From Terriglobia bacterium (GTDB taxonomy: Bacteria > Acidobacteriota > Terriglobia > Acidiferrales > UBA7541), in assembly GCA_020072805.1 (NCBI GenBank), contig JAIQGC010000001.1, positions 373 through 64,372 on the forward strand: a stretch of DNA of 64,000 nt, written 5' to 3'. The notes below the pieces were generated by a model. It searched no databases. It saw only the letters and a program-made list of their open reading frames with translations, and was not told the origin of the DNA. The position numbers and the translations under genes were made by a program. Position 1 is the first letter of the stretch; each line of letters opens with the position of its first letter. Below, in pieces: positions 1,547 to 21,219 of the stretch.

Positions 1547-1623
1547 CGGGGCGTAGCGCAGCCTGGTAGCGCGCCTGGTTCGGGACCAGGAGGCCGTTGG
1601 TTCAAATCCAATCGCCCCGACCA
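1547..1623 (+). tRNA. tRNA-Pro (anticodon CGG)
   Basis: 77 nt. Acceptor stem CGGGGCG/CGCCCCG, anticodon arm CCTGG-TTCGGGA-CCAGG, T-loop GGTTCAAATCC, encoded CCA end. Confidence 0.97.
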
Positions 1624-1711
1624 CTTCAAGATTCAGCCAATCTCAAATTCAAGAGTGAATTAAAGTCAAGCCAAGCGACAGCGGCGGTGGCGCGTCCCGG
1701 CGAAGCCGGGA

Positions 1712-1744
1712 AGGCCGAAGGTTCAAATCCTTTTGCCCCGACCA
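1712..1744 (+). repeat. Duplicated 3' end of tRNA-Pro (att-like scar 1)
   Basis: AGGCCGAAGGTTCAAATCCTTTTGCCCCGACCA matches tRNA 1591-1623 at 28/33 nt. The next 4 nt (CTTC) are also shared. Confidence 0.85.
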
Positions 1745-1963
1745 CTTCTTCCCTTCGTTTCATCGGGTTACAGATTAGGCTGCGACAATGCCTTCCATTC
1801 TGTTTCCGGCTGCATCGACTGAACCCCGCTGATGGGACAGGTTTCGATGGTCCCACCTGCCGTCGTTTGTGTTTTCTTCACGCCTCCCGGAGATGCCGGG
1901 AAAATGCCCCCACAAGTCGAACTGGTCAATCCCCCGGCGAGGATGTAGACTTCGCCTCGCATC

Positions 1964-1978
1964 CGGCTATGCACTTGC
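1964..1978 (+). promoter_or_regulatory. Candidate sigma-54 (-24/-12) promoter
   Basis: CGGCTATGCACTTGC has exact GG-N10-GC spacing with TTGC, 70 nt upstream of the ATG at 2048. Confidence 0.4.
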
Positions 1979-2047
1979 CTGCATGCGTTATTGGGACGAG
2001 CCAAACGAGGAGATGTTCGAGGGCCAATAAATACACGGAGAGATTCC

Positions 2048-3949
2048 ATGGATAAGACTCGGGAGCATCGCGATCTTGGCATGGGGCGGCCCATCGCCCG
2101 GCGGGACTTCTTGAATGGTGTCGCCATCGGAATTACGGGTGCGTATGCTGCCTGGAACGGGATATCCGCGGAGGCTGCGCCGGTATCCACGATGGCGGAA
2201 GCAGCGCAGTACCCTCCTCTACAAACCGGACTGCGAGGTCAATACCCCGCGGCTGTCGAAGAATTCGAGCGCATTCGCCAGGGAAAGTTTACGCAATTTC
2301 CGGTGGCCGACAGCGAACTCCACGAAGAGTTTGACCTGGTCATTGTGGGAGGGGGAATCTCCGGCTTGTCCGCGGCGTATTTTTATCAGACAGCACTGGG
2401 CGCCGAGCAGCGCATCCTGATCCTGGACAACCACGACGATTTTGGCGGCCACGCCAAACGCAACGAATTTCAATATCGGGAGCGGACGTTTATCGGCTAC
2501 GGCGGCACCATGGGAATCGAGACGCCCTATCCGTACAGCTATTGCGCCAAGGCGCTCATCAAGGAACTGGGCATTGAAGTGGAGCGCGGCGCGGAATTCC
2601 ACAACCGCGAGATCGAGGAAAAGCACAATTTGGGCATCGGCGTGTTTTTCGACCGGGAACACTTCGGAGAGGACCGGCTGGTGGCGGGAGCGGGGCGCCT
2701 TCCCTGGAAAACATTTTTCGAAAAGGCTCCGCTCTCCGAAGCAGCCCGGAAGGACCTGATTCGCCTGCACGGCAAGAATCCTGATTACCTGGCGGGTTCC
2801 AGCGAAGCGGAAAAAAGAGCCCAGCTGGCCCGGATGAGCTATCAGGAGTTTCTGCTGAAGATTGCCAGGATCAACCCGGATGCGCTGCCTTTGTTTCTGG
2901 GAGAGGGTGGCCGAAACAATAAACGAGTGGACACCATGCCGGCGCTCGAAGCCGCGCGCCACGGGGCGATCGGCTTCAACGGCCTGGGTTTGAAGTTCGA
3001 GGAGAGTTTCAACGAAGGTTCCTACCTGTTTCACTTTCCAGACGGGAACGCATCGGTCGCCCGGCTTCTCGTTGGCAAGTTGATTCCCGCGGCTCTTCCC
3101 GGCAAACAATCCATGAACACCATCGTTCGGGCGCCGCTCGACTATGGAAAACTCGATGCCCCGGACTCCCCGGTGCGCATTCGCCTGAGCAGCCCGGTGG
3201 TGCGCGTGCAGCACGACGGGCCGGCGGAATCCGCGCGCGCCGTGCGCGTCGCTTACCGGTGCGATGGCAAACTCCGGGGCGTGCGGGCGCGCCACTGCAT
3301 TCTGGCCTGCTACAACGGATTCATTCCTTCCTTGCTGCCGGAGCTGCCCGAACGCCAGCGCGAGGCGCTCAACTATCCCGTCAAAGTGCCCATGATGTAC
3401 ACCAACGTGCTTCTGCGCAACTGGAGCGCATTTGAGAAGCTCGGTGTCTCCGCGATCAGCGCTCCGGGCATGTATCACACGGATTGCCGGCTCGATCCGG
3501 GCACCACCGTCGGAGGCTATCGCGGCGTAAGCACGCCGGAGGAGCCCATCCTGGTGCACCTGATGCGCAATCCGAATAAACCTGGGCTGCCCAGGAAAGA
3601 GCAGAACCGCGCCGGACAACAGGAACTGCTCTCGACGACTTTCGAACAGTTTGAATTTCAGATTCGCAGCCAGCTCGGACGCATGCTGGGGCCGGGAGGA
3701 TTTGATCCCGCTTCGGACATTGCCGCGATCACCGTCAACCGCTGGCCGTATGGATACGCCTATACTTACGACACCCTGGCGGACCCGGATGTGCCGCCGG
3801 AACAGCGCCCGCACGTGATTGGGCGGCAGCGCTTCGGACGGGTCACCATCGCCAACGCCGATGCCGGCGCCGCGGCCTTTACCAATCAGGCCATCGATGA
3901 GGCCCATCGCGCCGTGCAGGAACTCCTGGTGCACGAAGGGCTGACCTGA
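2048..3949 (+). CDS. Tat-exported FAD-dependent amine oxidoreductase, spermidine dehydrogenase (SpdH)-like
   Basis: Twin-arginine signal ARRDFLNG...AEA, FAD motif VIVGGGISGLSAA, DNHDDFGGHAKRNEF, ITVNRWPYGYAY, RVTIANADAG. RBS GGAG precedes ATG 2048, so I moved the start from the ORF-track 1991. Confidence 0.8.
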   Translation: MDKTREHRDLGMGRPIARRDFLNGVAIGITGAYAAWNGISAEAAPVSTMAEAAQYPPLQTGLRGQYPAAVEEFERIRQGKFTQFPVADSELHEEFDLVIVGGGISGLSAAYFYQTALGAEQRILILDNHDDFGGHAKRNEFQYRERTFIGYGGTMGIETPYPYSYCAKALIKELGIEVERGAEFHNREIEEKHNLGIGVFFDREHFGEDRLVAGAGRLPWKTFFEKAPLSEAARKDLIRLHGKNPDYLAGSSEAEKRAQLARMSYQEFLLKIARINPDALPLFLGEGGRNNKRVDTMPALEAARHGAIGFNGLGLKFEESFNEGSYLFHFPDGNASVARLLVGKLIPAALPGKQSMNTIVRAPLDYGKLDAPDSPVRIRLSSPVVRVQHDGPAESARAVRVAYRCDGKLRGVRARHCILACYNGFIPSLLPELPERQREALNYPVKVPMMYTNVLLRNWSAFEKLGVSAISAPGMYHTDCRLDPGTTVGGYRGVSTPEEPILVHLMRNPNKPGLPRKEQNRAGQQELLSTTFEQFEFQIRSQLGRMLGPGGFDPASDIAAITVNRWPYGYAYTYDTLADPDVPPEQRPHVIGRQRFGRVTIANADAGAAAFTNQAIDEAHRAVQELLVHEGLT

Positions 3950-4014
3950 GCCGGCGGGATGCGCGAGCGGAAGCGAGGGAACACGGTAACAATTTGGGAT
4001 CGCAGAATTTGGCC

Positions 4015-4554
4015 ATGAAGCGTGGAATTGCAATCTTCACTCTGCTCATTTTTCTGCCAGCTACGCTGGCGTGGCGCGAAGCTTCGGCGCGCGCGGCCAG
4101 GCAAGGTCAGAACGCCCCGGCAGCCAGGAGCGAACCGCCGGCGCAGCCGATTCCCTACAGTCATAAGAAGCACCTGGCCCTGGGGCTGAAATGCCAGCAG
4201 TGTCACCCTAACCCCGAACCGGGCGACCGCATGACTCTTCCCGCGGCAGGCCAATGCATGGCCTGCCATGTGACGATTGCCCGGGAAAAACCTTCCATCC
4301 AAAAGCTCGCGGAGTTTGCCAAATCGGGCCAAGCCATTCCCTGGGTGCGGTTCTACGTCGTCTCCGGCTGGGTCTATTGGAATCATCGCGTGCATCTGGA
4401 GGCCAAGATGACCTGCGCCATGTGTCACGGCCCGGTGGAAGAGATGGAGGTCATGGCCCGGGCGACCAATGTCACGACCATGGCTGGCTGCATCGAGTGT
4501 CACCGCAAGAACGATGCGAGCACCGGCTGTCAGTATTGCCACGCCGACAAATAG
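4015..4554 (+). CDS. Periplasmic pentaheme cytochrome c (cytochrome c3/ActA-like fold)
   Basis: Sec-type signal peptide. Five CxxCH motifs (CQQCH, CMACH, CAMCH, CIECH, CQYCH) plus the YSHKKH and WNHRVH distal-His motifs. Confidence 0.9.
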   Translation: MKRGIAIFTLLIFLPATLAWREASARAARQGQNAPAARSEPPAQPIPYSHKKHLALGLKCQQCHPNPEPGDRMTLPAAGQCMACHVTIAREKPSIQKLAEFAKSGQAIPWVRFYVVSGWVYWNHRVHLEAKMTCAMCHGPVEEMEVMARATNVTTMAGCIECHRKNDASTGCQYCHADK

Positions 4555-4797
4555 ATTCGCAAAGGACTGCGGAGGGGCTTGATTTCATGTCCCGCACGGA
4601 CAAGTCGAAGTCACTCGCAGGCAAGATGTACTGGCTCACCGCGCATAGGCTCCTGCCCGGGGATCCTGATTTCTCTCCCGGGGCGCCGGCGGAAATACGC
4701 GGGTTTCGTTCCTGCTTGCGCTTGGCCTGATCCGCATCATCAGGACGGCGAACAAGCCGAACCTGGCGCGGCAACGATTCTTCTTTGGAGGTTGCAA

Positions 4798-7700
4798 ATG
4801 AACACTTTCAGACTCTTGGCCATTCGGATTCTGGCTCTTGTGCTTCTCGTCTGCGGCAGCGCCCTCGCCCAGACTTCCACGACATCGCTGCAAGGCACCG
4901 TAACCGACCCCAGCGGCGGAGCCATTGCCAACGCCACGGTTGTGCTGGTTAACCCCGAGTCCAAATCGGAGAGGAGTACCACCACCGGCGCGCAGGGAGA
5001 GTACCGCTTCCAGTTTCTTCCTCCCGGAACCTACACGCTGACCGTCTCCGCCACGGGATTTGCCCGCCAAGAGCAGACTGGCCTGCAACTACTGGTCAAT
5101 ACGCCCGCAACGGCCAACGTGCAATTGAAGGTCGGAAGCGCCGCGGAGAGTGTTACCGTGAGTTCCGAACCACCGGCGCTGAATCTGGTGGACGCCTCCA
5201 TCGGGACCCCCTTCAATGAGACGCAGGTGAAACAGATTCCGCTCGAAGGCCGCAACGTTCCGGACTTGCTGAATATTCAGGCCGGCGTGACCTATCTAGG
5301 AAGAGAAGTGAACACAGAGCAAGACACGCGCAGCGGCGCGGTCAATGGCGCGCGCAGCGACCAGAGCAACATCACTCTCGATGGCGTGGACGTCAATAAC
5401 TTCAGTTCGGGATACGCTTTTACATCCGTCCTGCCGGTAACGCTCGACTCCGTCCAGGAATTCCGCGTGACCACCACGAATTACAATTCCGATCAGGGGC
5501 AAGGTTCGGGCGCCCAGGTGGCCATGATTACCAAGAGCGGGACGAATCTGTTCCATGGATCCGCCTACGAATACATGCGCAATACCGCGACCAGCTCCGC
5601 CGATTTTTTCACCAAGCAGTCCGAACTGGCCAGCGGCCAGCCCAACAAGCCGCTCAAGCTGATTCGCAATATTTTCGGAGTGTCCCTGGGCGGACCCGTG
5701 AAGAAAGACAAGCTGTTCTTTTTCACCAACTACGAAGGGACGCGCCGCCGGGAAGAGGTGAGCGCCGTGCGCACCATCCCCACGCCGTCGCTCTGCCAGG
5801 GAAACATTTCCTATGATAACGGCGCCGGCATCACCACCCTGACGCCGGCGGATATTCTGGCTCTGGACCCCGCCGGCATGGGGATCAATCCAGCGATTCT
5901 GGATCTCACCAACCCCAGCCAGCCGGGCGGGTACTTTGGCACGACCTTCTGCAACGGAAAGTATCCGACCAACGATACCTCCGTCGGGGATGGGAGGAAT
6001 TACGCCGGTTTTCGTTTCCGGGCCCCCATCAGCGAAAATAATAATGCTTTTATCGCGCGATTCGACTACCAGCTGACCTCGAACGGCAAACACACCTTGT
6101 TCTGGCGCGGGAACCTGCAGAATAAGAGTAATCTGGATGAGCCTTTCCTGCCCGGGACTCCCCCGGAACAGACCATCACCGACCACAGCAAGGGATTTGC
6201 CGTCGGATATACGGCGATTTTGAGCGCCAAGCTGGCCAATACCTTGCGTTGGGGATTGACCCGCCAGAGCACCGCTTGGACCGGAAACTCCAATCAGCCG
6301 TGGAACACTTTCCTGGGACTTGATCAGGGCATTGTCTATAGCCATAGCTTGCAGATGCCCGTGCATAACATCACCGATGATTTGTCGTGGACCAAGGGCG
6401 TGCACGCTCTGCAGTTCGGCGGCAATATCGGCATCGCCCGGGATCCCCGCGTCAGCTACCAGCACTCTTTCAGCATGGGCGTGGGAACCACGAGCTGGAT
6501 GGCCCCCACAAGTTTTGCCAACACCGGAGGCGGAAGCACGCTGGACCCAGCCAATCTGGGCTATCCAGAGCCTGTCAATACAATCGCTTATGATTATCCC
6601 ATGCTGTCCCTGCTGGGGATGGTTTCGCAGATGATCGGCAACTTCAATTACGACAAGAATGGCAATTCCTTGCCGTCTGGCGCACCGGTGGTTCGCGACT
6701 ACGCTCTGAACTGGTACGGCTTGTATGCCCAGGATACCTGGCGTCTCAAGCCGAATCTGACTGTTACCTACGGCCTGCGCTGGGAGATTTTGCCTCCGCC
6801 GTGGGAGGTGAACGGTTATCAGGCGTCTCCGACGGTCAATCTGGGTCAGATGTTTGACCAGAACGTGGCCAACATGCAGAAGGGCATCGGATTTGCCACC
6901 ATGACTCCGATTTCGTTCGTCCTGGGCGGCCCTGCCAATGGGGGGACCGGCTTCTACGAGTCCGAAAAGAACGATTTTGCGCCGCGCATTTCCGTTGCTT
7001 ACACCCCGCATTTCCAGAACGGCTTTATGCAGAAACTATTTGGCACGGGCGACAAGACCGTCTTGCGCGGTGGATTCGCCAAAGTCTACGACCGCCCCGG
7101 CATGCAGCTGATCAATACGTTTGACCAGAACGCACCCGCAGGCCTTTCCGCCACGGTGCAGAATCCCTGCTGCATTCCGGTGACGGACGGCGCCGAAAAC
7201 GTTCCGCGCATCACCAACATCAACGTGATTCCCCAGCTGGATCTGGCCAACAACCAATTCTTCCCGCTGGTGCCTCCGGGGGCTTTCCCGCAGACGCCCA
7301 ACCCCTTCGGCCAGGCCATCACCTGGGGAGTTGATCAGTCGCTCAAAAACCCCTATGCCTACACCATGGATTTTTCCATTGGCCGGCAACTGCCCAAAAA
7401 TTTCTCACTGCAACTTTCTTATGTCGGACGGATTGGGCGCAATCTGCTCACCCAGCGCGATCTGATGCAACCGCTCGATCTGGTGGATCCCAAGACGGGA
7501 ATTGATTACTACTCGGCCGCTGCCCGCATGTCCGAATTGGGACGCCAGGGCGTGCCGATTCCCAGCCTTAACGATGCCTTGGTCGGCCCCACCGCCGCCT
7601 TCTGGCATGACATGCTCCCGCCGCTCGCTGCCGGTGCCCAGTATTCCGTATTTTATGGCAGCGCGCCTCCGACAACGGACCTGATGCAAGCCATTTACAC

Positions 7701-8673
7701 TCTCTATACCACGGTGGACACCTATCCAGGGAACGAGGTCGTGGGTCTTGGCAACATCGACCTCTACTATGCCCTGAGCGACACACTCGGCAATTACTAC
7801 GACTTCGGCAACCCTCTGCCCACGCCCAATCCGCTGGTCGGAGACATGCTCAATGGCCAATTCTCCAGCATGTATGCATGGAGTTCCATCGGGAAGTCCA
7901 ATTACAATGGATTGCAAATCATTCTCCGCAAGCAGTCCAGCACCGGACTGCAATTCGATGTGAACTACACCTATTCCAAGTCCATTGACATCACCTCCGC
8001 GGCGGCTCGCGTAGGCTATAACCAGGGTCTGAACGGAAGCCAGTTGGTCAACGCTTTTTCACCCAATCAGAACCGTGCCGTCTCCGATTACGACACCAAG
8101 CATCAGATCAGCGCTGATTGGATTGCCTGGCTGCCTTTCGGCAAGGGAAAATATTTCGGCCGCGATGCCGGCAGCGTTTTGGATGCGGTCATCGGAGGCT
8201 GGCAGGTTTCCGGCCTGGCTCGCTGGACCAGCGGTTTCCCCTTCAGCGTGGGCAACGGCCAGTCCTGGGCCACCGACTGGAACTATTCCGGTCTCGCGAC
8301 TCTGCTCAGCCGGCCGGTCACCGGAGCGTTTCCGCAGCCGGATGGTTCGGTGAGTGTGTTCGCCAACCCCGCGGCGGCCAGAGCTGCCTTCGACAACACC
8401 TACCCGGGCCAGAGCGGCTCGCGCAATGTTCTCCGCGGGCCGGGCTATGCCGGGTGGGACATGAGCGTGAACAAACGCTGGAAGATCCACGGCGAACGCC
8501 AGGGCCTGCAATTTCGCTGGGAGATCTTCAATCTTCCGAACCTGAAACGCTTCAACACCCAGTCCGTTGCCAGTCCCTATACGCTTCAGCAGTTGCCGGG
8601 ATCGTTCGGTGATTACACCAGCCTGTTGACCGAAGCCCGCGTCATGCAATTCGCGCTGCGCTTTGACTTCTAA
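4798..8673 (+). CDS. TonB-dependent outer-membrane transporter with N-terminal carboxypeptidase-regulatory-like domain
   Basis: RBS GGAGG before ATG 4798, signal peptide, GTVTDPSGGAI domain, plug motifs (LDGVD, VQEFRVTT) and C-terminal ARVMQFALRFDF. Confidence 0.92.
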   Translation: MNTFRLLAIRILALVLLVCGSALAQTSTTSLQGTVTDPSGGAIANATVVLVNPESKSERSTTTGAQGEYRFQFLPPGTYTLTVSATGFARQEQTGLQLLVNTPATANVQLKVGSAAESVTVSSEPPALNLVDASIGTPFNETQVKQIPLEGRNVPDLLNIQAGVTYLGREVNTEQDTRSGAVNGARSDQSNITLDGVDVNNFSSGYAFTSVLPVTLDSVQEFRVTTTNYNSDQGQGSGAQVAMITKSGTNLFHGSAYEYMRNTATSSADFFTKQSELASGQPNKPLKLIRNIFGVSLGGPVKKDKLFFFTNYEGTRRREEVSAVRTIPTPSLCQGNISYDNGAGITTLTPADILALDPAGMGINPAILDLTNPSQPGGYFGTTFCNGKYPTNDTSVGDGRNYAGFRFRAPISENNNAFIARFDYQLTSNGKHTLFWRGNLQNKSNLDEPFLPGTPPEQTITDHSKGFAVGYTAILSAKLANTLRWGLTRQSTAWTGNSNQPWNTFLGLDQGIVYSHSLQMPVHNITDDLSWTKGVHALQFGGNIGIARDPRVSYQHSFSMGVGTTSWMAPTSFANTGGGSTLDPANLGYPEPVNTIAYDYPMLSLLGMVSQMIGNFNYDKNGNSLPSGAPVVRDYALNWYGLYAQDTWRLKPNLTVTYGLRWEILPPPWEVNGYQASPTVNLGQMFDQNVANMQKGIGFATMTPISFVLGGPANGGTGFYESEKNDFAPRISVAYTPHFQNGFMQKLFGTGDKTVLRGGFAKVYDRPGMQLINTFDQNAPAGLSATVQNPCCIPVTDGAENVPRITNINVIPQLDLANNQFFPLVPPGAFPQTPNPFGQAITWGVDQSLKNPYAYTMDFSIGRQLPKNFSLQLSYVGRIGRNLLTQRDLMQPLDLVDPKTGIDYYSAAARMSELGRQGVPIPSLNDALVGPTAAFWHDMLPPLAAGAQYSVFYGSAPPTTDLMQAIYTLYTTVDTYPGNEVVGLGNIDLYYALSDTLGNYYDFGNPLPTPNPLVGDMLNGQFSSMYAWSSIGKSNYNGLQIILRKQSSTGLQFDVNYTYSKSIDITSAAARVGYNQGLNGSQLVNAFSPNQNRAVSDYDTKHQISADWIAWLPFGKGKYFGRDAGSVLDAVIGGWQVSGLARWTSGFPFSVGNGQSWATDWNYSGLATLLSRPVTGAFPQPDGSVSVFANPAAARAAFDNTYPGQSGSRNVLRGPGYAGWDMSVNKRWKIHGERQGLQFRWEIFNLPNLKRFNTQSVASPYTLQQLPGSFGDYTSLLTEARVMQFALRFDF

Positions 8674-8739
8674 GCGCCTCGCGGAAGGGACTGAACTCTG
8701 CTCTGGCCGGGGAGGCCGCCCCGGCTTGGCGCATCGCCC

Positions 8740-10077
8740 ATGACCACACTCGCTCGCAAGCTTCGCCTCATCGATTATCTTGCCTTGGGCTTTGGCACCA
8801 TGGTCGGCACGGGCTGGCTAGTGGTGATGGACGACATCCTGCAGCGTGGAGGGCCGCTCGGCGCCATCCTCGGTTTCACGGCGGGCGCCCTCATGCTCCT
8901 GCCAATCGGCTACGTCTACGGCAAGCTGGTGAAGTTAATCCCCGATGCCGCCGCGGAGGTGGCCTACACGGCGCGGGTTTTTCCGCCCGGCGTGAGCTTC
9001 GTCACGGGCTGGATGATGTTTCTGGCCTACTTTCTGACTTGCCCCTTCGAAGCCCTGGCGGCCGGAAAAATCCTGGGGTATCTTTTCCCTTCGCTGAATT
9101 CCATTGAGCTGTACCGCATCGGAGGTCATCCCGTTTATTTGCCTCACCTTGTTCTCGGGCTGGCCATTGCGGTCTTTTTCACCTGGTTGAATTACCGGGG
9201 GATTCAGGCCAGCACCCGCTTCCTCAAGTTCACCACTTTCACCTTTCTGGCCCTGGTCATCGGCTTTGCCCTGGCCGGCGGGAAACACGGTTCCGTGGCC
9301 AATCTGTATCCGGCTTTTTCTCACTCTCCGCTGATTTCCATTCTGCTCGTGTGGCAGGTGGTTCCCTGGCTGATGTCCGGATTCGAATCCGTGGGCAAAA
9401 GCGCGGAAGAGGCCAGCCCGGAATTCAAGAGCGGCAATTTTTCCGTGGCCATCCTCATGACCATCTTCGCGGGGCTTACCTTCTTCTGCCTGGTGATCGG
9501 CGCCGTGTCATACGTCGCTCCCTGGCAAAGCCTGAATGGCAGCTTGCAGTTTCCCATTGCTGTCGCCTTCGAAAATGCTTTTCACGCCCACTGGATCGTG
9601 AATTTCATTCTGGGCACGGCCCTGGTGGCTCTGCTGCAAGCGTTCAACGCCAACATGGTTGCTTCGTCGCGCCTGCTCTTCGCCATGGGCCGCCGCAATC
9701 TCCTGATTCCTTCCATGGGCAATGTTCATGTGCTGAACCAGACTCCGGTCCTGGCCATCTTCGGAGTCGGGGGCGCCACGGCCGTGGCCATCTTCTTCGG
9801 TGAAGCCGGTCTCGTGCCTATTCTGGAAGTGGGTGCGGTGGCCTGCGCGGTGGGATGGATGTCCGCCTGCGTATCCTATTTTATGATGAAACCCAGCCTG
9901 ATGGACCGCGCCGCCGCGCTGTTTGGATTTCTGGTGACCTCGGCGATGATCCTGGTCAAGGTCCTGCCCCTCGTTCCCGGCCATTTTACGCGCTATGAGT
10001 GGATCGCCCTGGGCATCTGGGCCGTGATCGGATTTCTCGTTCGACTGCCGGCCCGGCCAGGAACGCTCCGCCCCTAG
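8740..10077 (+). CDS. APC-family amino acid/polyamine permease
   Basis: About 12 hydrophobic segments, GTMVGTGW in TM1 and GFESVGKSAEE in TM6. Confidence 0.88.
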   Translation: MTTLARKLRLIDYLALGFGTMVGTGWLVVMDDILQRGGPLGAILGFTAGALMLLPIGYVYGKLVKLIPDAAAEVAYTARVFPPGVSFVTGWMMFLAYFLTCPFEALAAGKILGYLFPSLNSIELYRIGGHPVYLPHLVLGLAIAVFFTWLNYRGIQASTRFLKFTTFTFLALVIGFALAGGKHGSVANLYPAFSHSPLISILLVWQVVPWLMSGFESVGKSAEEASPEFKSGNFSVAILMTIFAGLTFFCLVIGAVSYVAPWQSLNGSLQFPIAVAFENAFHAHWIVNFILGTALVALLQAFNANMVASSRLLFAMGRRNLLIPSMGNVHVLNQTPVLAIFGVGGATAVAIFFGEAGLVPILEVGAVACAVGWMSACVSYFMMKPSLMDRAAALFGFLVTSAMILVKVLPLVPGHFTRYEWIALGIWAVIGFLVRLPARPGTLRP

Positions 10078-11054
10078 TCCCCGCTCATCTCCACGGCAGC
10101 CGGCAGACCCTGGCTGGCCCGCGAGCGAAAGACGCGCGGGCAGACGCCAAAGCGCTGCTTGAATACGCGGCTAAAATGGGCGGAATCATTAAAACCCCAG
10201 AAAAACGCGATCTCCGTGATGCTTTTCGCGCGCAGCCGCGGATCCGCGAGATCGCTCCGGCAATGCCGCAGGCGCTGCGTTCGAATCCACTCGGCCAGCG
10301 TGGACCCGTGCACCGAAAAAAGGCGGTGCACATGCCGCACGGAAAGATTCAGCGCCGCGGCAATTTCCGCCGGCCTCAGGGTCGTTTCCGTCAAGTGGGC
10401 ATCAATGTATTTCAATATCAGCGAAGCGGGCTCGCTCCCGCGATTCGTGCCCGCCGCCGGCCTCCCCGGCGTTCCCACGCATGCCGCCAGGATGCGCAAA
10501 TAGGCTTCGATGGCGGCCGCGCCTTCTTCCCAGGTCAGCTCCTCCGCCTGCCGGTATAGCGAGGTGGAAAGATGGAACAGAAAAGTGCCCAGTCCGGACT
10601 CCCCCGGGATTCTTCGGGCCACCGGCAGCTCGCCGAGGCGCACCCGGCTTTGCATCAGCGATCGCGGCACGCGCAGGTAAAGCCGCGCGCAATCGCCGGG
10701 ACAATCCGAAGACCAGGGCCGCCCGGAGTCGATCAGAGTGACATCGCCCTTCTTCAGCACCGCCGCCTTTCCATCCTGGCAATATCTGCGCAGCCCGGCC
10801 AGCTGCGTGATGACAATCCACGCCCTGCTCTCCGCATTCAAACTGAACGAGGGAAACTTATTGAAGGAAACCGCGCTCGAGGAAAAAAGCGTCATTTCCA
10901 AATCGGCCACTTTTCGGCGCTCGATCGAGCCGTGAAAAGGAAAGCGCTTTGGAAACTGAAAATTGCAATCGCCGCAAATCTGCTTGGCGTTGGACAGCCA
11001 GGCTTCCTGGCGGTCCGGCGCGGGAATCAGATCCGTTGTGAATGAGTGTGACAT
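10074..11054 (-). CDS. AraC-family transcriptional regulator (FeaR-like N-terminal domain)
   Basis: C-terminal double HTH (IAAALNLSVRHVHRLF; ITEIAFFWGFNDSAHFSRVFKQRFG). The start could alternatively be 11069. Confidence 0.9.
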   Translation of the reverse strand: MSHSFTTDLIPAPDRQEAWLSNAKQICGDCNFQFPKRFPFHGSIERRKVADLEMTLFSSSAVSFNKFPSFSLNAESRAWIVITQLAGLRRYCQDGKAAVLKKGDVTLIDSGRPWSSDCPGDCARLYLRVPRSLMQSRVRLGELPVARRIPGESGLGTFLFHLSTSLYRQAEELTWEEGAAAIEAYLRILAACVGTPGRPAAGTNRGSEPASLILKYIDAHLTETTLRPAEIAAALNLSVRHVHRLFSVHGSTLAEWIRTQRLRHCRSDLADPRLRAKSITEIAFFWGFNDSAHFSRVFKQRFGVCPRVFRSRASQGLPAAVEMSGD

Positions 11055-11355
11055 TTTTCCCTGGTGCAACTTGTACTCGCCGGCTGATCTGGCTCTGTGT
11101 GGTTCAGCGTATACTTGCCATTTCTTATCTTGTTTTCTTCAATATCCACCCTAGAGAATTCGATATTGGCCGTCAGGCTAACACGCCTTTGGAATTTCTA
11201 ACAAGGGTTTTTGTGCGGTTTCTCTTTGTCGCGGTAGTACCGGACGGACGCAGCATGCTTTATTGGAAACCGCAGTCCGATCAGCAGCCCGAATACGGGA
11301 AGAAGTTACACAGCTATCCGGCGCTGATTCAATGCAATGGATTGTTTTAAAGCGG

Positions 11356-11400
11356 TGGTTTGGGACCAGGAGGCCGAAGGTCCAAATTCTATCGCCCCAA
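11356..11400 (+). repeat. Degenerate 3' half of tRNA-Pro (attR-like scar 2)
   Basis: TGGTTTGGGACCAGGAGGCCGAAGGTCCAAATTCTATCGCCCCAA matches tRNA 1576-1620 at 38/45 nt. Confidence 0.85.
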
Positions 11401-11547: not shown

Positions 11548-12567
11548 ATGAAGAATGATCTCGTTGTGGTGACGGGAGCCGGCGGATTCATTGGGGGAAG
11601 CCTGGTGGCGGAGATGCGCGCGAAGGGTTTTCAGCGCATCCGGGCGATTGACATCAAGCCGTTCGACGACTGGTATCAGCGTTTCGAAAATGTCGAAAAT
11701 CTCTCTCTCGACCTGAACCTGAAGGAAAACTGCGAGGTGGCGGCCCGCGGTGCCGGGGAGATTTACAATCTGGCGGCGAACATGGGCGGGATGGGTTTCA
11801 TCGAGCAGAACAAGGCGCTGTGCATGCTCTCCGTGCTGATCAATACGCAAATGCTGCAGGCCAGCGTGAAGCACGGAGTGCGACGGTATTTCTACTCGTC
11901 CTCGGCGTGCGTCTATAACGCGGAGAAGCAGAAAACTTACGAAGCACCCTCGTTGAAGGAAGAGGACGCCTATCCGGCGATGGCCGAGGACGGCTATGGA
12001 TGGGAAAAACTGTTTTCCGAGCGCATGTGCCGGCACTTTCGGGAGGATTTCGGCCTGGAGACGCGCGTGGCGCGATTTCACAACGTATACGGGCCGTGGG
12101 GAACCTGGTACGGAGGGCGGGAGAAGGCGCCCGCGGCGATCTGCCGGAAGGTGATTGAAGCGAAGGTGAGCGGGAAGCACGAGATCGAAATTTGGGGGCC
12201 GGGGAACCAGACGCGCAGCTTCATGTTTATCGACGATTGCCTGAAGGGCATTGATTTGATCATGCGTTCGGAAATTCTGGAGCCCATCAATCTGGGTTCG
12301 AGCGAAGCCGTGACGGTGAATCAACTGGTGGATATTGTGGAAGAGATCGCCGGAATCAAGCTGAAGCGCAACTATGACCTCAGCGCGCCCAAAGGGGTGA
12401 ACGGACGGAACAGCGACAACACCCTGATCCGCAAAAATCTGAATTGGGAGCCGGATACCTCGCTGCGCGCGGGCATGGAGAAAACCTACCGCTGGATCTA
12501 TGACCAGTATCTGGCGCGCGAAAGAGGCGAGGCGGGCGTGGTGCGGGAGAGCAACGCCGGGCGGTAG
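11548..12567 (+). CDS. NAD-dependent epimerase, GDP-mannose 3',5'-epimerase-like
   Basis: GAGGFIG, AANMGGMGFI, SSACVY, DGYGWEKL (YxxxK) and GGREKAPAAICRKV. Confidence 0.88.
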   Translation: MKNDLVVVTGAGGFIGGSLVAEMRAKGFQRIRAIDIKPFDDWYQRFENVENLSLDLNLKENCEVAARGAGEIYNLAANMGGMGFIEQNKALCMLSVLINTQMLQASVKHGVRRYFYSSSACVYNAEKQKTYEAPSLKEEDAYPAMAEDGYGWEKLFSERMCRHFREDFGLETRVARFHNVYGPWGTWYGGREKAPAAICRKVIEAKVSGKHEIEIWGPGNQTRSFMFIDDCLKGIDLIMRSEILEPINLGSSEAVTVNQLVDIVEEIAGIKLKRNYDLSAPKGVNGRNSDNTLIRKNLNWEPDTSLRAGMEKTYRWIYDQYLARERGEAGVVRESNAGR

Positions 12568-16684: not shown

Positions 16685-18403
16685 TTATTTCACCTCATAT
16701 GCCCGCGTGGAGGTGATTCCTCTTCCTTCCGTAACCGTCACCGTCTGCCCCGCGGCCACCTTTGCCAGCCGCTCCGTCTGCCCGCTGGGCCAGCGGATTT
16801 CGATCTCGTCCGCTTGCCTGTGCGCGCCCAGCCCGAAGGTAAGCACGAGTTCGCTCGAGGATAAATAGCTCGAGCCGCTGCGCAGCATCTGCGTCTGCGC
16901 GTCGCGTCCCGCCGTAACCCGCACGACCGCCCCGATGCCGTCGCGGTTCGAGCGCGTGCCCACGAGTTTCACCCGCAGGCTGGAATTCCCCCGCCCCTCG
17001 TTGCGGAAGAGCGCCGAGGCACCCCCGTTGCTGGCGATGAGCAGGTCTGGCCGCCCATCATTATTGATATCACCGTAGGCCGCTCCGCGCGCCACGCGCG
17101 GCTGATTGAACGCCCCGCCCATCGCCCGCGTCGTTTCGATGAATTTCCCGTTCCCCAGGTTGTGAAAGAGATGCGGCGGCTCGGCATAGCGCACGTTTGC
17201 CTGGACCTTCTGGATGTCCGGATCAATATGCCCGTTGGCCACGAAAATGTCCGGCCAGCCGTCCAGATCGTAGTCCCAGAAAAAGCAGGCGAAGCCCAGT
17301 GTGAGGAGCGACGCGCGGCCCACCTCCGAACTGGGCGCCACGTCCACGAAAAGTCCGTTCCCCTCGTTGTGGTACAGCGAAAGCATCTGGTTCGAAAAAT
17401 TGCTGATCAGCACGCTGGCGTGCCCGGAGCGGTCGTAATCCGCCGCGTCCGCGCCCATTCCCGCGCGGGCGATGCCGTCCTCGCTGAAAGCCACCCCGGC
17501 AATCACCCCCTTTTCGGAAAACGTCCCGTTGCCGTTGTTGCGGTACAATTTATTCGGCTGCGTATCATTCGCGAAAAGAAAATCGGGCCAGCCGTCGTTG
17601 TCGTAATCAAGAATCGCCACGCCCAGGGTCTTCGACGTGGGTTCGTACAGCCCGGCTTTCCGGGTGACATCCTCGAACGTTCCGTCGCCGCGGTTGTGCC
17701 ACAGCCTCGCCGAAGTTCCCGGATAGGATTCCGGCGTGCAGTACGATTTCGCTTTTCCGTCCAGCGTGCAGTACAAATCCTTCTCCGGCGACCACTGCAC
17801 GTAGTTGCCCACCACCAGATCCAACCGTCCGTCCTTGTCGTAATCCACCCAGGCGGCGCTGGTGCTGAGTTCCGGATCGGTTGTCAGCCCGGCTTTTTTG
17901 GTCACGTCGCTGAAGGTTCCGTTGCCGTTGTTGCGGAAAAGCCGGCTCTGCCCGTACGCGGTAATAAAAATATCGTCCCAGCCGTCGTTGTCGTAATCCC
18001 CCACGGCCACGCCCATTCCGTAGAGTTCCACGTCCAGCCCGGCCTTGTGCGTCACGTCGGTAAACGTGCCGTCGTGGTTGTTGTGATAGAGCTTCAGCGT
18101 GGAATGCTGCCGCACATGCCCGGACCAGTCCATCCCGTTGACCAGCAGAATGTCCGGCCAGCCATCGTTGTCGTAATCAATAAAAGCCACGCCCGGCCCC
18201 AGCGTTTCGGGAAGGTATTTCTTTCCGAACGCCCCGGAATTATGCACAAAACGGATTCCCGCCTCGCGGGTGACGTCGCGAAACGTGGCCGTGCCTGCCG
18301 GCGAAGCGGGCCTCTGCGCCCCGCCCGGCGCCGCAAAAAGCCCTGCCATCATCCCGGCCGCTAATCCCGCGAATAGGAAAGTTGCAAAATGGACTTTTCT
18401 CAT
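16685..18403 (-). CDS. Secreted FG-GAP/VCBS repeat protein with C-terminal ASPIC/UnbV domain (CRTAC1 family)
   Basis: Signal peptide, repeated DYDNDGxPD calcium-blade motifs, and C-terminal SNRDGIGAVV...GSSYLS...FGLG...IRWPSG. Confidence 0.92.
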   Translation of the reverse strand: MRKVHFATFLFAGLAAGMMAGLFAAPGGAQRPASPAGTATFRDVTREAGIRFVHNSGAFGKKYLPETLGPGVAFIDYDNDGWPDILLVNGMDWSGHVRQHSTLKLYHNNHDGTFTDVTHKAGLDVELYGMGVAVGDYDNDGWDDIFITAYGQSRLFRNNGNGTFSDVTKKAGLTTDPELSTSAAWVDYDKDGRLDLVVGNYVQWSPEKDLYCTLDGKAKSYCTPESYPGTSARLWHNRGDGTFEDVTRKAGLYEPTSKTLGVAILDYDNDGWPDFLFANDTQPNKLYRNNGNGTFSEKGVIAGVAFSEDGIARAGMGADAADYDRSGHASVLISNFSNQMLSLYHNEGNGLFVDVAPSSEVGRASLLTLGFACFFWDYDLDGWPDIFVANGHIDPDIQKVQANVRYAEPPHLFHNLGNGKFIETTRAMGGAFNQPRVARGAAYGDINNDGRPDLLIASNGGASALFRNEGRGNSSLRVKLVGTRSNRDGIGAVVRVTAGRDAQTQMLRSGSSYLSSSELVLTFGLGAHRQADEIEIRWPSGQTERLAKVAAGQTVTVTEGRGITSTRAYEVK

Positions 18404-21219
18404 TTTGGGCCTTTGCCGAGCGGCGCGCTTCCGTGCTCATGCACCGCCTGGCGCTCGTTGTTGTCCGCCGGATGCGCCTGGCGGTACGGCCCGGTGAGGG
18501 CCTGCGCCGATTCGTCGGCCTTGAAGCGCAGGTAGCGCGCCTTGTATTGATTGGCGCGGGCTTCGTCACCCAGCCCGTTGTAGCAGAGCATCAGATTGTA
18601 ATTGGCCTGGAGATCTTCCGGATCGATCGAGAGAACCTGATCGAACTGCCCCACGGCGTCGGCATAGTGCTTCTGCAGAAAAAAGATGCGCCCGAGGTCG
18701 TTGCGCACCACGCGGTCCCGCGGATATTGCCCGAGCACCGAGCGCAGCCGGGCCGCGGCATCCTCATAGCGCCCCTCGCTCCTGAGCACGCGCGCGTAGA
18801 AATAATTCGCGCGAGCCAGGCTGGGCGAGAGAGCCAGCGCCTTTTCCAGCACGGGGCGCGCCCCCGCCATGTCTCCCTCCTGCACGCGCACGCGGCCGAT
18901 GTTCACCCAGCCGTCGGCCCTCTGCGGGTCAATCTGCGTGGCCGTTTCGAAGGCCGCCTGCGCAGCGCGCAGATCCCCTTGCAGCAGCAACCCGATTCCG
19001 TAGTCGTTCCAGCGCACCCAGTCGTCCTTGGCCAGCACCGTCTGCGGAGCAATCGCCGGCGCGCCGCGCGCAATCACCCGCAGCGTTTTCGTGTCTTCGG
19101 CCAGCGTGATGACCGGCAGGTCGGGTATCTGGTGAAGTTTTCCGGAAACGCCGGAAGTTTCTCCCGTAAAAACCCATTTGCCATCGTCGTAATTCTTGCT
19201 CACGCCAGGATGCGCGTCGCCCGGATCGCGCACGCCAGCATAGGCAAACTGCGTGTTCCACCACGGAAACTTCCGGTAGTTCAGCTTGGCGTGCAGCGTC
19301 AGCTTCTCTCCGGCGTTTTCCGGAATGCGCAGCCGGTAATGCACCGTATCCGCCGCGCCCGGCGGGATCAGCCGCACGTAAACCACCGAGCGCGTGGACC
19401 AGGCATTGCGCTTGTTGATGGGATTGCCGTGCCCGTCAATCTGCAGCGAGCGGTAGAAATGCGCTCCGGGCTCGACCGGCCCCTGTCCGCCTTTGCCGCC
19501 GTCCTCGATCATCCCGCTCCAGAAAAGCGTCCGCCCCTTTTCGTCCGTGGCTTGCAGCTCCAGCCAGGTTTCCGCCGCGTCCACGGTTCCGCCGGGGAAA
19601 AAATGCCCCACCTTTTTTGTGCGCACCACCACGTCAACGCGCACGTCTTCCCCGCGGTGCACCGCCGCGTCCACGCGCCCCAGCGGAGCGGTGAGCGCGC
19701 GCACTTCGCCCGCCGGCCCCGTGGGACGAGTCTGCTCGGCCTCTTCCCCCACCGCGAATGTCGTGGTGATCTCCGCCCCGGGCATTTGCCCGCTCGCCGC
19801 CGCCGGCCCGGCAGGCGAAATCGCGAAAATATCCACGCCCACGCTGCCGCTCTGCAGAAATTTCCGGCTCGCTTCCAGTTGGGTGGCGTCCTGGTTGGCC
19901 GTGGGCAGCGCCGTGTTGGCCCCGGGGAAGCGGTGCGAATGCACGTAACCGTTCACGTTGCCGTCGTCGTTCGATGCCACCAGCGGCATGTGACAGTCCG
20001 GGCATCCCATCGGCGTCGCCGGATAATAGAATGAGCGCGCCCCCTCGCCCGATACCGCGCTGGCCTGCCAGTTGTCGTACTCGTTGAATCCCCGCACCCA
20101 CCCATAGCTGTTCACCGGGACGTCCAGGTGCACCTTGTGGCAGGCCGCGCAGAATTCCGGCGCCTGCTGGCGCATGAAGGGCTTGAGGAAGGCCCGCCGG
20201 TGCGGCTCGGGATTCACCCGCAGCAGAAAATCGTGCAGCCCGCGCATCAGAGCATTGTCGCTCGTGGCGAATTTATCCAGGCTGGGATATTCCAGCGTGT
20301 AATCCCCCTGCCCCATCGTGCTCTTCACCTGCACGATGCTGTGGCACATCATGCAGCTCAGCCCCGCCTGGCCCTCCGGCAGATTCTCAATCTCGCGCAC
20401 CGGACGGTCGAACATTCCGCTGAAGAGCAGCGCCGGATCGTGGCATCCCGCGCACCATTTCGACGGTTTTACCCCGGCCACGTCCTGCATGTACTCGATG
20501 CTCTTGCGATACCACTGATTGTTGAACGACGAAAAATGGTGCGACGAGCTGTTCCACTGGTCGTAAATGTCCTTGTGGCAGCGCTGGCAGGTCGCCGACT
20601 CCAGAAAATAATGCGAGGGAATCGTTCCCCCGTGGAGAACCTGCGCCGACGTCGGAAAGAACAGTCCCTGGGGGCCGTCTCCTTCGTGCTCCATGGTTTC
20701 CGGAGCGATCGCCGGATTCGCAATCCGGTTGATCCGGTGCCAATACACTTCCCGCAACCACCACGCGCCCCCGGCCAGTCCCGCCGCAACCAGCAGCAAT
20801 CCCGCTCCGCGCAGCGTCCTCGCTCCTGTCCCCAGGCGGCCCCGCGCATCCAGCCATGCAGCCGCCAGCGCAACCAGCGCAATCGAGCAAAGAAAAATAT
20901 GCGCCATCTGCCAGCCGCGCAGCCGCTGCGGCGTCCCCACCACGATCAGCGCAACGCCCAGCGCCGCCCCAGCCGCCAGCAGCGCCCACCCGAGCCGCGC
21001 CGTGAAAACTTCCGTTTTCCAAAAACGCGCCAAAAACGGCGGCAGCAGCACCGCCAGCAGCACCCCCGCAGCCACGTGCAGCAGAACCGCTCCAAAATAG
21101 ACCAGCGTGGCCGAAGGCAGCGCGTAGAGATACAAACCGCTCGCCGCCAGCAGCCATACGGCATTCAAAGAAACGCGCTTCATAGCGACAAATCCATGCG
21201 GAGAATCATACCCGTTCAC
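18400..21219 (-). CDS. Membrane-anchored multiheme cytochrome c (c554-like) with C-terminal TPR repeats
   Basis: N-terminal TM helices, five CxxCH motifs (CQRCH, CAGCH, CMMCH, CAACH, CPDCH) and TPR-like repeats at the C-terminus. Overlaps the start of the UnbV gene by 4 nt. Alternative start at 21183. Confidence 0.85.
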   Translation of the reverse strand: MNGYDSPHGFVAMKRVSLNAVWLLAASGLYLYALPSATLVYFGAVLLHVAAGVLLAVLLPPFLARFWKTEVFTARLGWALLAAGAALGVALIVVGTPQRLRGWQMAHIFLCSIALVALAAAWLDARGRLGTGARTLRGAGLLLVAAGLAGGAWWLREVYWHRINRIANPAIAPETMEHEGDGPQGLFFPTSAQVLHGGTIPSHYFLESATCQRCHKDIYDQWNSSSHHFSSFNNQWYRKSIEYMQDVAGVKPSKWCAGCHDPALLFSGMFDRPVREIENLPEGQAGLSCMMCHSIVQVKSTMGQGDYTLEYPSLDKFATSDNALMRGLHDFLLRVNPEPHRRAFLKPFMRQQAPEFCAACHKVHLDVPVNSYGWVRGFNEYDNWQASAVSGEGARSFYYPATPMGCPDCHMPLVASNDDGNVNGYVHSHRFPGANTALPTANQDATQLEASRKFLQSGSVGVDIFAISPAGPAAASGQMPGAEITTTFAVGEEAEQTRPTGPAGEVRALTAPLGRVDAAVHRGEDVRVDVVVRTKKVGHFFPGGTVDAAETWLELQATDEKGRTLFWSGMIEDGGKGGQGPVEPGAHFYRSLQIDGHGNPINKRNAWSTRSVVYVRLIPPGAADTVHYRLRIPENAGEKLTLHAKLNYRKFPWWNTQFAYAGVRDPGDAHPGVSKNYDDGKWVFTGETSGVSGKLHQIPDLPVITLAEDTKTLRVIARGAPAIAPQTVLAKDDWVRWNDYGIGLLLQGDLRAAQAAFETATQIDPQRADGWVNIGRVRVQEGDMAGARPVLEKALALSPSLARANYFYARVLRSEGRYEDAAARLRSVLGQYPRDRVVRNDLGRIFFLQKHYADAVGQFDQVLSIDPEDLQANYNLMLCYNGLGDEARANQYKARYLRFKADESAQALTGPYRQAHPADNNERQAVHEHGSAPLGKGPK

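Follow-up and report, generated by a model that had tools for sequence, protein, structure and literature searches.

Descriptions of polyamine catabolism place it in the cytoplasm, supplied by ABC or APC importers. [quoted passage not shown] The flavin adenine dinucleotide (FAD) of SpdH hands its electrons on to a haem b that is exposed at the protein surface and has His54 and His562 as ligands, and all of the SpdH homologues examined in that study keep both haem-ligating histidines (PMC12564564). Here we describe a five-gene locus, present in a 64,000-nucleotide stretch of DNA (called the window below) from a Terriglobia bacterium (GenBank assembly GCA_020072805.1, contig JAIQGC010000001.1, positions 373 to 64,372), that encodes an SpdH-family dehydrogenase lacking both histidines, together with a pentahaem cytochrome c, a TonB-dependent-receptor-type transporter, an APC-superfamily permease and a FeaR-like regulator. 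The window corresponds to contig C151 of genome G000, a metagenome-assembled genome (MAG) of 3.98 Mb in 157 contigs that is 99.8% complete, and its DNA was recovered almost entirely in one freshwater-sediment metagenome run. We read the region from 1624 to 11398 (called the island below) as a compact module, probably mobile, for the catabolism of a polyamine-type amine, and assign this reading a probability of roughly 0.65.

According to this reading, the receptor-type protein would carry the amine across the outer membrane, and the dehydrogenase, exported by the twin-arginine translocation (Tat) pathway, would cleave one of its C-N bonds in the periplasm. Electrons from the flavin would pass to the co-encoded ActA-like cytochrome and from there to the respiratory chain, the CAT-like APC permease would import the cationic products (for instance a diamine or amino-aldehyde-derived compounds), and the FeaR-like AraC-family regulator would switch the system on, probably via a tandem repeat located 5' of the receptor gene. 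An earlier note on this DNA had listed a TonB transporter, a periplasmic dehydrogenase, a cytochrome, an APC permease and a FeaR-like regulator. We confirm all five, at 2048-11069; they are flanked by an RtcB gene on the minus strand (3-1418) and a gene encoding an NAD-dependent epimerase (11548-12567). The features of the locus are as follows:

1547..1623, plus strand: intact tRNA-Pro(CGG), the left island boundary (ARAGORN; Rfam tRNA, 67 bits)
1697..1745, plus strand: decayed fragment of the 3' part of a tRNA (T-arm and acceptor end, ...GCCCCGACCA), direct-repeat family D1
2048..3949, plus strand: predicted Tat-signal SpdH-family FAD amine dehydrogenase, both axial histidines of haem b absent (phmmer, AlphaFold2 (AF2) model)
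4015..4554, plus strand: ActA/QrcA-like cytochrome c with five haems and a hydrophobic segment at its N-terminus (alternative TTG start at 3994)
4586..4625, plus strand: putative AraC-type operator made up of two direct half-sites of 19 nt, 5' of the receptor gene
4798..8673, plus strand: TonB-dependent-receptor-type outer-membrane transporter (open reading frame (ORF) from 4579; likely start ATG 4798, followed by a signal peptide)
8740..10077, plus strand: APC-superfamily permease (PF13520, E 6e-26)
10074..11069, minus strand: FeaR-like AraC-family regulator (AraC_binding_2 and HTH_18), convergent with the permease gene with a 4-nt overlap
11356..11398, plus strand: degenerate direct repeat of the 3' half of tRNA-Pro, 37 of 43 positions identical, the right island boundary (repeat family D1)

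The remaining ORFs of at least 80 aa between 1624 and 11398 (not scanned) all overlap the five genes or the tRNA region. Among the scanned ORFs in this interval we found no glycoside hydrolase, in agreement with the earlier note, and no SusD-like gene or integrase, and a scan for promoters and terminators, together with Rfam, returned the tRNA as its sole result. A block of ~45 nt just 5' of the SpdH start (window 2000-2047; CCAA..GA.GAG..TTCGAGG..CA) is kept in two other loci (L184:14684-14740 and L185:3380-3430).

Homology and fold place the dehydrogenase in the SpdH family, and predict that it oxidises amines. A phmmer alignment to the Pseudomonas aeruginosa enzyme, PaSpdH (PDB 7d9f/7d9i), covers residues 3-619 of 620 (E 3e-137). 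An AF2 model built from a 26-sequence alignment (predicted local distance difference test score (pLDDT) 84, predicted template modelling score (pTM) 0.85) matched the 7D9F-7D9J structures in Foldseek with template modelling (TM) scores of 0.84 normalized to the query and 0.90-0.92 normalized to the target, at 43% identity, while the next-best folds, those of putrescine and monoamine oxidases, reached a TM score of ~0.5. The protein begins with a twin-arginine motif (ARRDFLNG) and retains both the GxGxxG motif and the equivalent of PaSpdH Tyr443 (KVPMMYTNV). Ligand and mutant residues of PaSpdH were taken from PMC12564564 and from PDB titles, 7D9I being the Asp282 mutant. In the window protein, GRNNKRVDT takes the place of the loop around Asp282, in a part of the alignment that is uncertain.

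A further difference from PaSpdH lies at the haem b site. His54 is replaced by Glu, His562 by Tyr (NRWPYGY versus NRWSHGY) and His46 by Tyr. Among 119 SpdH-family sequences from 82 loci, in which SpdH and neighbouring genes were extracted by motif and tblastn, both haem ligands are kept in 107 and absent in 12. These 12 His-less sequences form a single clade (Shimodaira-Hasegawa-like approximate likelihood ratio test (SH-aLRT) support 100; one change on the tree), and represent a clear exception, at the level of sequence, to the statement in PMC12564564 that both histidines are kept. In the window subclade (8 rows, support 95), a gene for a multihaem cytochrome c lies directly 3' of the dehydrogenase gene in seven of eight cases, six of them encoding ActA-like pentahaem cytochromes; in the seventh (L007), a seven-haem TPR protein occupies the place of the pentahaem cytochrome. 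A reverse search of public genomes with the cytochrome revealed eight further SpdH-cytochrome pairs, with SpdH identities of 71-85%, and in all eight the SpdH lacks both histidines and has the Tat motif. A His-less SpdH gene therefore stands directly before a multihaem cytochrome gene in 15 cases in all, and the cytochrome is of the pentahaem type in 14 loci. Only two of the 107 His-keeping homologues have a multihaem cytochrome gene within 1.5 kb: one shares the cytochrome of its His-less neighbour (L003), and the other is the second SpdH paralogue of this genome. Since the His-less sequences form one clade, the pairing represents one evolutionary event with retention, and not 15 independent events.

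The second paralogue (G000:C116:47621-49555; L094:11511-13571) is 49% identical to the window protein, keeps both haem histidines, and is followed by two genes for large multihaem cytochromes (650 aa, L094:13652-15604; 627 aa, L094:15982-17865). Elsewhere in the family, many loci from Terriglobales (L053, L056, L061, L067, L068 and others) contain a fixed unit composed of a receptor, two tandem His-keeping SpdH proteins and an Amidohydro_3 enzyme, which suggests that the substrate of that unit may be a conjugated or acylated amine.

The cytochrome has five CxxCH motifs and four further histidines that are invariant among its orthologues. Its nearest solved relatives are a c7-like multihaem protein (8k9e, E 2e-23) and subunit A of alternative complex III (ACIII; 6btm, E 1e-19); other best matches in PDB and NCBIfam are 6f0k and NF041781, and the QrcA model gives 68 bits against a cut-off of 180. 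Three paralogues, 56-58% identical, are encoded elsewhere in the genome (C55:69289-71569, C88:12144-14523 and C88:32512-36185, coordinates that include the flavoprotein gene and then the cytochrome gene; L096-L098), each directly 3' of the gene for a Tat-signal flavoprotein of 556-579 aa. These flavoproteins belong to the amine-oxidase/CrtI superfamily (PF01593), with CrtO as the best NCBIfam model, far under its cut-off, and one of the three pairs is preceded by a gene for a dicarboxylate/amino-acid (SDF) symporter. The same order of flavoprotein and cytochrome occurs in 23 other Acidobacteriota loci (L118-L139, L146, L174, L176, L177), and it was not seen for cytochrome homologues under ~52% identity. 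Because the haem b ligands are lost and the genes are strictly paired, electrons from the window flavoprotein are predicted to pass to the co-encoded cytochrome, and the gene context of the paralogues supports a role for the cytochrome as the immediate electron acceptor of the flavoprotein.

We found no description, in the literature searched, of a dedicated pentahaem cytochrome that accompanies loss of the haem b site. A bolder proposal would be that the His-less SpdH and its pentahaem partner constitute an unrecognised two-subunit "flavocytochrome c amine dehydrogenase", in which haem b has been swapped for a separate multihaem wire, that the same family of wires serves several Tat-exported flavoproteins of Acidobacteriota, and that periplasmic oxidation of TonB-imported organic nitrogen is thereby linked to respiration in soil and sediment. 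We offer it as speculation, and consider it unlikely to hold as a whole.

The number of multihaem partners raises the question of whether the locus has a mainly respiratory role, in which a multihaem network would receive electrons from amine oxidation and serve respiration in sediment, be it micro-oxic, anaerobic or extracellular. Two multihaem cytochrome genes follow the second SpdH paralogue, the 4-Mb genome has four flavoprotein-pentahaem pairs, and the window DNA comes from freshwater sediment, all of which would be consistent with such a role. It is, however, compatible with nutrient scavenging, the permease and the aminotransferase found in related loci (below) point to assimilation of the products, and the locus contains neither a terminal reductase nor an outer-membrane conduit. 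A mainly respiratory role therefore seems quite improbable to us.

The remaining genes of the proposed module would provide transport and regulation. The receptor contains a CarboxypepD_reg domain (PF13620, E 2e-24), an OMP_b-brl_4 barrel (PF25183, E 3e-141) and a weak match to PF00593, and its C-terminus (...RFDF) ends in Phe; no sequence match was found among solved chains. It is one of ~28 receptor-type genes in the 3.98-Mb genome. Its closest paralogue (59%; G000:C94:40020-45736, L099) lies directly behind a gene for a class-V aminotransferase with a Tat-like N-terminus (RRNFLGS), which, judged from that motif, would be an unusual exported pyridoxal phosphate (PLP) enzyme. The nearest solved relatives of the permease are cationic amino-acid transporters (CAT4/GkApcT, E 5e-14 to 3e-10), and its NCBIfam matches consist solely of generic amino-acid permease models, all far below their cut-offs. 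The regulator matches PF14525 (E 8e-16) and PF12833 (E 1e-20), and scores 188 bits with the FeaR model NF007243, for which the cut-off is 199.

Tandem direct half-sites are the usual layout of an AraC-family operator, and two such half-sites (GTCAC..N..CAAG), spaced 21 nt start to start, are present in the 243-nt gap that precedes the receptor gene. This tandem recurs at unchanged spacing 5' of the receptor gene in the related genome G042, and no equally high-scoring site is present elsewhere in the 64-kb window; the candidate operator was not found upstream of SpdH. The matrix used for scoring was built from these same sites, and the candidate operator is therefore a lead and not proof.

Recurrence of the gene set elsewhere, which the earlier note had named as a way to check its proposal, was observed in several genomes. 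All five genes are present, rearranged and at 68-88% identity, in G042, a 'Candidatus Acidoferrales' MAG: the receptor (75%) and permease (88%) genes form a unit with the gene for a cytoplasmic DAO-family oxidase, followed by an ISL3 transposase fragment, and the opposite strand carries the genes for SpdH (83%), the cytochrome (68%) and the AraC-type regulator (74%), with another transposase gene beyond them. The G042 regulator gene is directly 3' of the cytochrome gene on the same strand, and its product scores 189.6 bits with NF007243. Genome G041 contains SpdH (86%), cytochrome (74%) and receptor (60%) genes in the same order as in the window, followed by the permease gene (71%) on the other strand. 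Locus L005 likewise contains four of the five genes, with the permease (54-62%) and receptor (66%) genes divergent from those for SpdH and the cytochrome. Locus L003, from Bryobacteraceae, encodes a receptor, an Amidohydro_3 enzyme, a class-III aminotransferase, a His-less SpdH, a cytochrome, a His-keeping SpdH and an APC permease that differs from the one in the window, and in L006 and L007 a receptor gene lies beside SpdH genes. The permease orthologue in L005 (47-1380), which comes from a long-read MAG, is split over several frames, probably owing to sequencing indels rather than decay.

The association between receptor and dehydrogenase extends to the family as a whole. The density of receptor genes per 100 kb is 7.7 at 0-0.5 kb from SpdH-family genes, 5.4 at 0.5-1.5 kb, 3.6 at 1.5-3 kb, 0.8 at 3-6 kb and 0.5 beyond 6 kb; it is thus ~10-15 times higher within 1.5 kb than beyond 3 kb, and the background in this genome is ~0.7 per 100 kb. 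We attach no probability to this enrichment, as related genomes are not independent. If SpdH and the cytochrome formed one unit, and the receptor, permease and AraC genes were unrelated neighbours, then one might expect separate transcripts and pairs that lack the other genes; indeed, the 243-nt gap with its own candidate operator suggests a separate receptor transcript, and the SpdH-cytochrome pairs in L112-L117 have no receptor gene in the 4 kb downstream. Receptor and permease orthologues nevertheless accompany SpdH and the cytochrome in G042, G041 and L005 despite rearrangement, and receptor genes are enriched beside SpdH genes across the family. Coincidental adjacency is therefore highly improbable, and the grouping of the five genes is not due to chance. 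We did not find, in the literature searched, SpdH packaged with a TonB-type receptor and an APC permease, or a FeaR-like regulator in such a setting.

The sole characterized members of the family use spermidine and spermine (PMC9397018, PMC12564564). A polyamine would fit the enzyme family, the cationic-amino-acid-transporter-like permease and the aminotransferase of L003, since class-III aminotransferases are used on diamines and 4-aminobutyrate (GABA). The earlier note's proposal of a module for amines or polyamines is supported by the identification of the dehydrogenase, which has a Tat signal, as an SpdH-family protein. Spermidine, spermine or close analogues are a possible substrate, at somewhat less than even odds in our estimation.

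Several observations sit poorly with a module for polyamines. The basic motif RNNKRVDT that replaces the Asp282 loop is conserved across the His-less clade and in its alphaproteobacterial sister, and, with that loop replaced, spermidine itself may not be the substrate. Classical polyamines (150-200 Da) are porin-sized, such that a TonB receptor would not obviously be needed. The permease did not match any polyamine or diamine transporter equivalog (of the PotE, PuuP or CadB type), and the Plug domain of the receptor (PF07715), although at the expected place, scores 21.6 bits (E 3e-4), just below its cut-off of 23.9. Additionally, the AraC gene recurs solely in G042, and five His-less sequences (L089 in genome G040, L012 and three from Vicinamibacterales) have no adjacent cytochrome gene.

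The same architecture could serve a secondary-amine compound that is not a classical polyamine and is so bulky or scarce that a TonB receptor is needed. Candidates would be conjugated or acylated polyamines, amino acids that are N-substituted or opine-like, and metal chelators of the aminocarboxylate type; the permease would then take up amino-acid-like products. TonB receptors usually serve large or scarce substrates, the RNNKRVDT motif is clade-wide, the permease is closest to amino-acid transporters, the receptor-permease unit of G042 runs into a DAO-family oxidase that resembles aminophosphonate and pipecolate oxidases, and an Amidohydro_3 enzyme has been added in many sister loci, all of which would favour such a substrate. 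By contrast, the substrates of the characterized family members and the pairing of the enzyme with a class-III aminotransferase in L003 argue for a polyamine, and we judge a substrate outside the classical polyamines to be somewhat unlikely. Recycling of siderophores was set aside, as the locus contains no iron-regulation, periplasmic binding protein or ABC gene.

Returning to the reading of a probably mobile polyamine-type module, its mobility is suggested by the ends of the island and by the distribution of its genes. The tRNA-Pro(CGG) gene at 1547-1623 and the copy of its 3' half at 11356-11398 (37/43) bracket the five genes exactly, and the fragment at 1697-1745 is possibly the scar of an earlier integration. 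In G041, a 52-nt fragment of the 3' end of tRNA-Pro(CGG) lies ~250 nt from the SpdH start, transposase genes are located within and beside the G042 copy, and the genomic contexts of the locus differ among G000, G041 and G042. No SpdH homologue of >52% identity was found in 24 sampled genomes of the same genus, and the nearest homologues (71-86%) are scattered over MAGs from Terriglobia and Bryobacterales. RtcB, encoded immediately to the left, has no orthologue in the 24 same-genus genomes, G041 or G042, and orthologues of 65-69% identity occur in a different family within the same order; the flank on this side, being patchy, also appears to be variable. To the right, eight genomes of the same genus have epimerase orthologues (77-84% identity), none of which is syntenic or lies next to a tRNA gene.

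Other results count against horizontal acquisition or fail to support it. No integrase ORF was found in the island, its GC content (0.592) is close to that of the genome (0.610; 9th percentile) with an ordinary tetranucleotide distance, and no syntenic empty site was found in eight same-genus and ten same-order loci. Two contig joints were considered as candidate empty sites (1566 to 11355 and 1587 to 1716), and were rejected because their sides are 20-28 nt long, contain replaced letters and fit other tRNA-Pro genes. Furthermore, compared with G041 and G042, the proteins of the locus are 60-88% identical, ProDH 65-68% and the N-terminal part of RpoB 90%, the last of which, for G042, is the level of a same-genus genome; such values cannot tell transfer from descent. 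The horizontal acquisition proposed in the earlier note thus finds support in the tRNA-Pro repeats, the tRNA fragment of G041, the insertion sequence (IS) elements of G042 and the patchy distribution, but not in composition, an integrase or an empty site. In our reading, the locus is an old island that has become ameliorated and occupies a variable spot, and we consider the module to be probably mobile.

Two further observations concern the sampled genomes. MAG DATKEV01 (L185/L122), labelled Candidatus Udaeobacter, contains an SpdH locus 60-86% identical to that of this genome, together with a flavoprotein-cytochrome pair (80%) and ProDH (68%), and either this label or the binning of the contigs concerned may be mistaken. 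G031 also encodes an SpdH homologue of 71% identity, and no claim made here rests on it. In the window itself, multihaem-TPR and ASPIC/UnbV-like proteins are encoded at 16685-21219, 5.6 kb to the right of the island. ASPIC-like homologues, each beside a seven-haem protein, also adjoin the SpdH loci in L007 (11882-15329) and L042; TPR repeats in these seven-haem proteins were shown for L007 only.

If correct, a periplasmic, TonB-fed version of amine catabolism across Acidobacteriota would change models of organic-nitrogen capture by this abundant and poorly cultured phylum. Histidine loss that goes strictly with a dedicated cytochrome gene would be a testable case of cofactor outsourcing, and would point to a natural redox partner of enzymes whose family is under development for polyamine biosensors.

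The predicted dehydrogenase resembles SpdH (PA3713; EC 1.5.99.6; 7D9F-7D9J) in its full-length homology, fold, Tat-type N-terminus, FAD motif and Tyr443 equivalent, and, as predicted here, in oxidising amines in the periplasm with the help of an external electron acceptor. Unlike SpdH, it has neither the His54 and His562 ligands nor the Asp282 loop; without the ligands, it falls outside the haem-containing SpdH proteins in the strict sense. Its gene is also grouped with those for a pentahaem cytochrome, a FeaR-like regulator and two transporters, the TonB-type receptor and the APC permease. FccAB sulfide dehydrogenase and PchCF p-cresol methylhydroxylase likewise consist of an exported flavoprotein and a separately encoded c-type cytochrome acceptor. 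Their flavoproteins, however, belong to another family, and their cytochromes are mono- or dihaem proteins, whereas the cytochrome here is ActA/QrcA-like and pentahaem, and the pair is known from its genes. With ActA and QrcA themselves the cytochrome shares the pentahaem c7/c3-type arrangement and an N-terminal hydrophobic segment, but it falls far under the QrcA cut-off, and its gene, which always follows that of a Tat-signal flavoprotein, is adjacent to those for SpdH and the receptor and not to ActB-F or QrcB-D genes.

The earlier note had called the locus "PUL-like". Like a SusC/SusD polysaccharide utilization locus (PUL), it would take a substrate up through the outer membrane, process it in the periplasm, import the products across the inner membrane and be controlled by a regulator encoded nearby, and its receptor carries an N-terminal CarboxypepD_reg extension; unlike a PUL, it processes its substrate with an oxidoreductase and contains no glycoside hydrolase gene. 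Since the SusD partner is missing, the term holds for the logic of the locus but not in its strict sense. The regulator resembles E. coli FeaR, the activator of tynA and feaB, in combining AraC_binding_2 and HTH_18 domains and in the position of its gene near that for a predicted amine-oxidising enzyme, but differs in scoring under the equivalog cut-off and in having a flavoprotein, not a copper amine oxidase, as its partner enzyme. In part, the locus would nevertheless work like each of these known systems. Although the families of all of its components are known, the module that they form in the window is real, coherent and recurrent.

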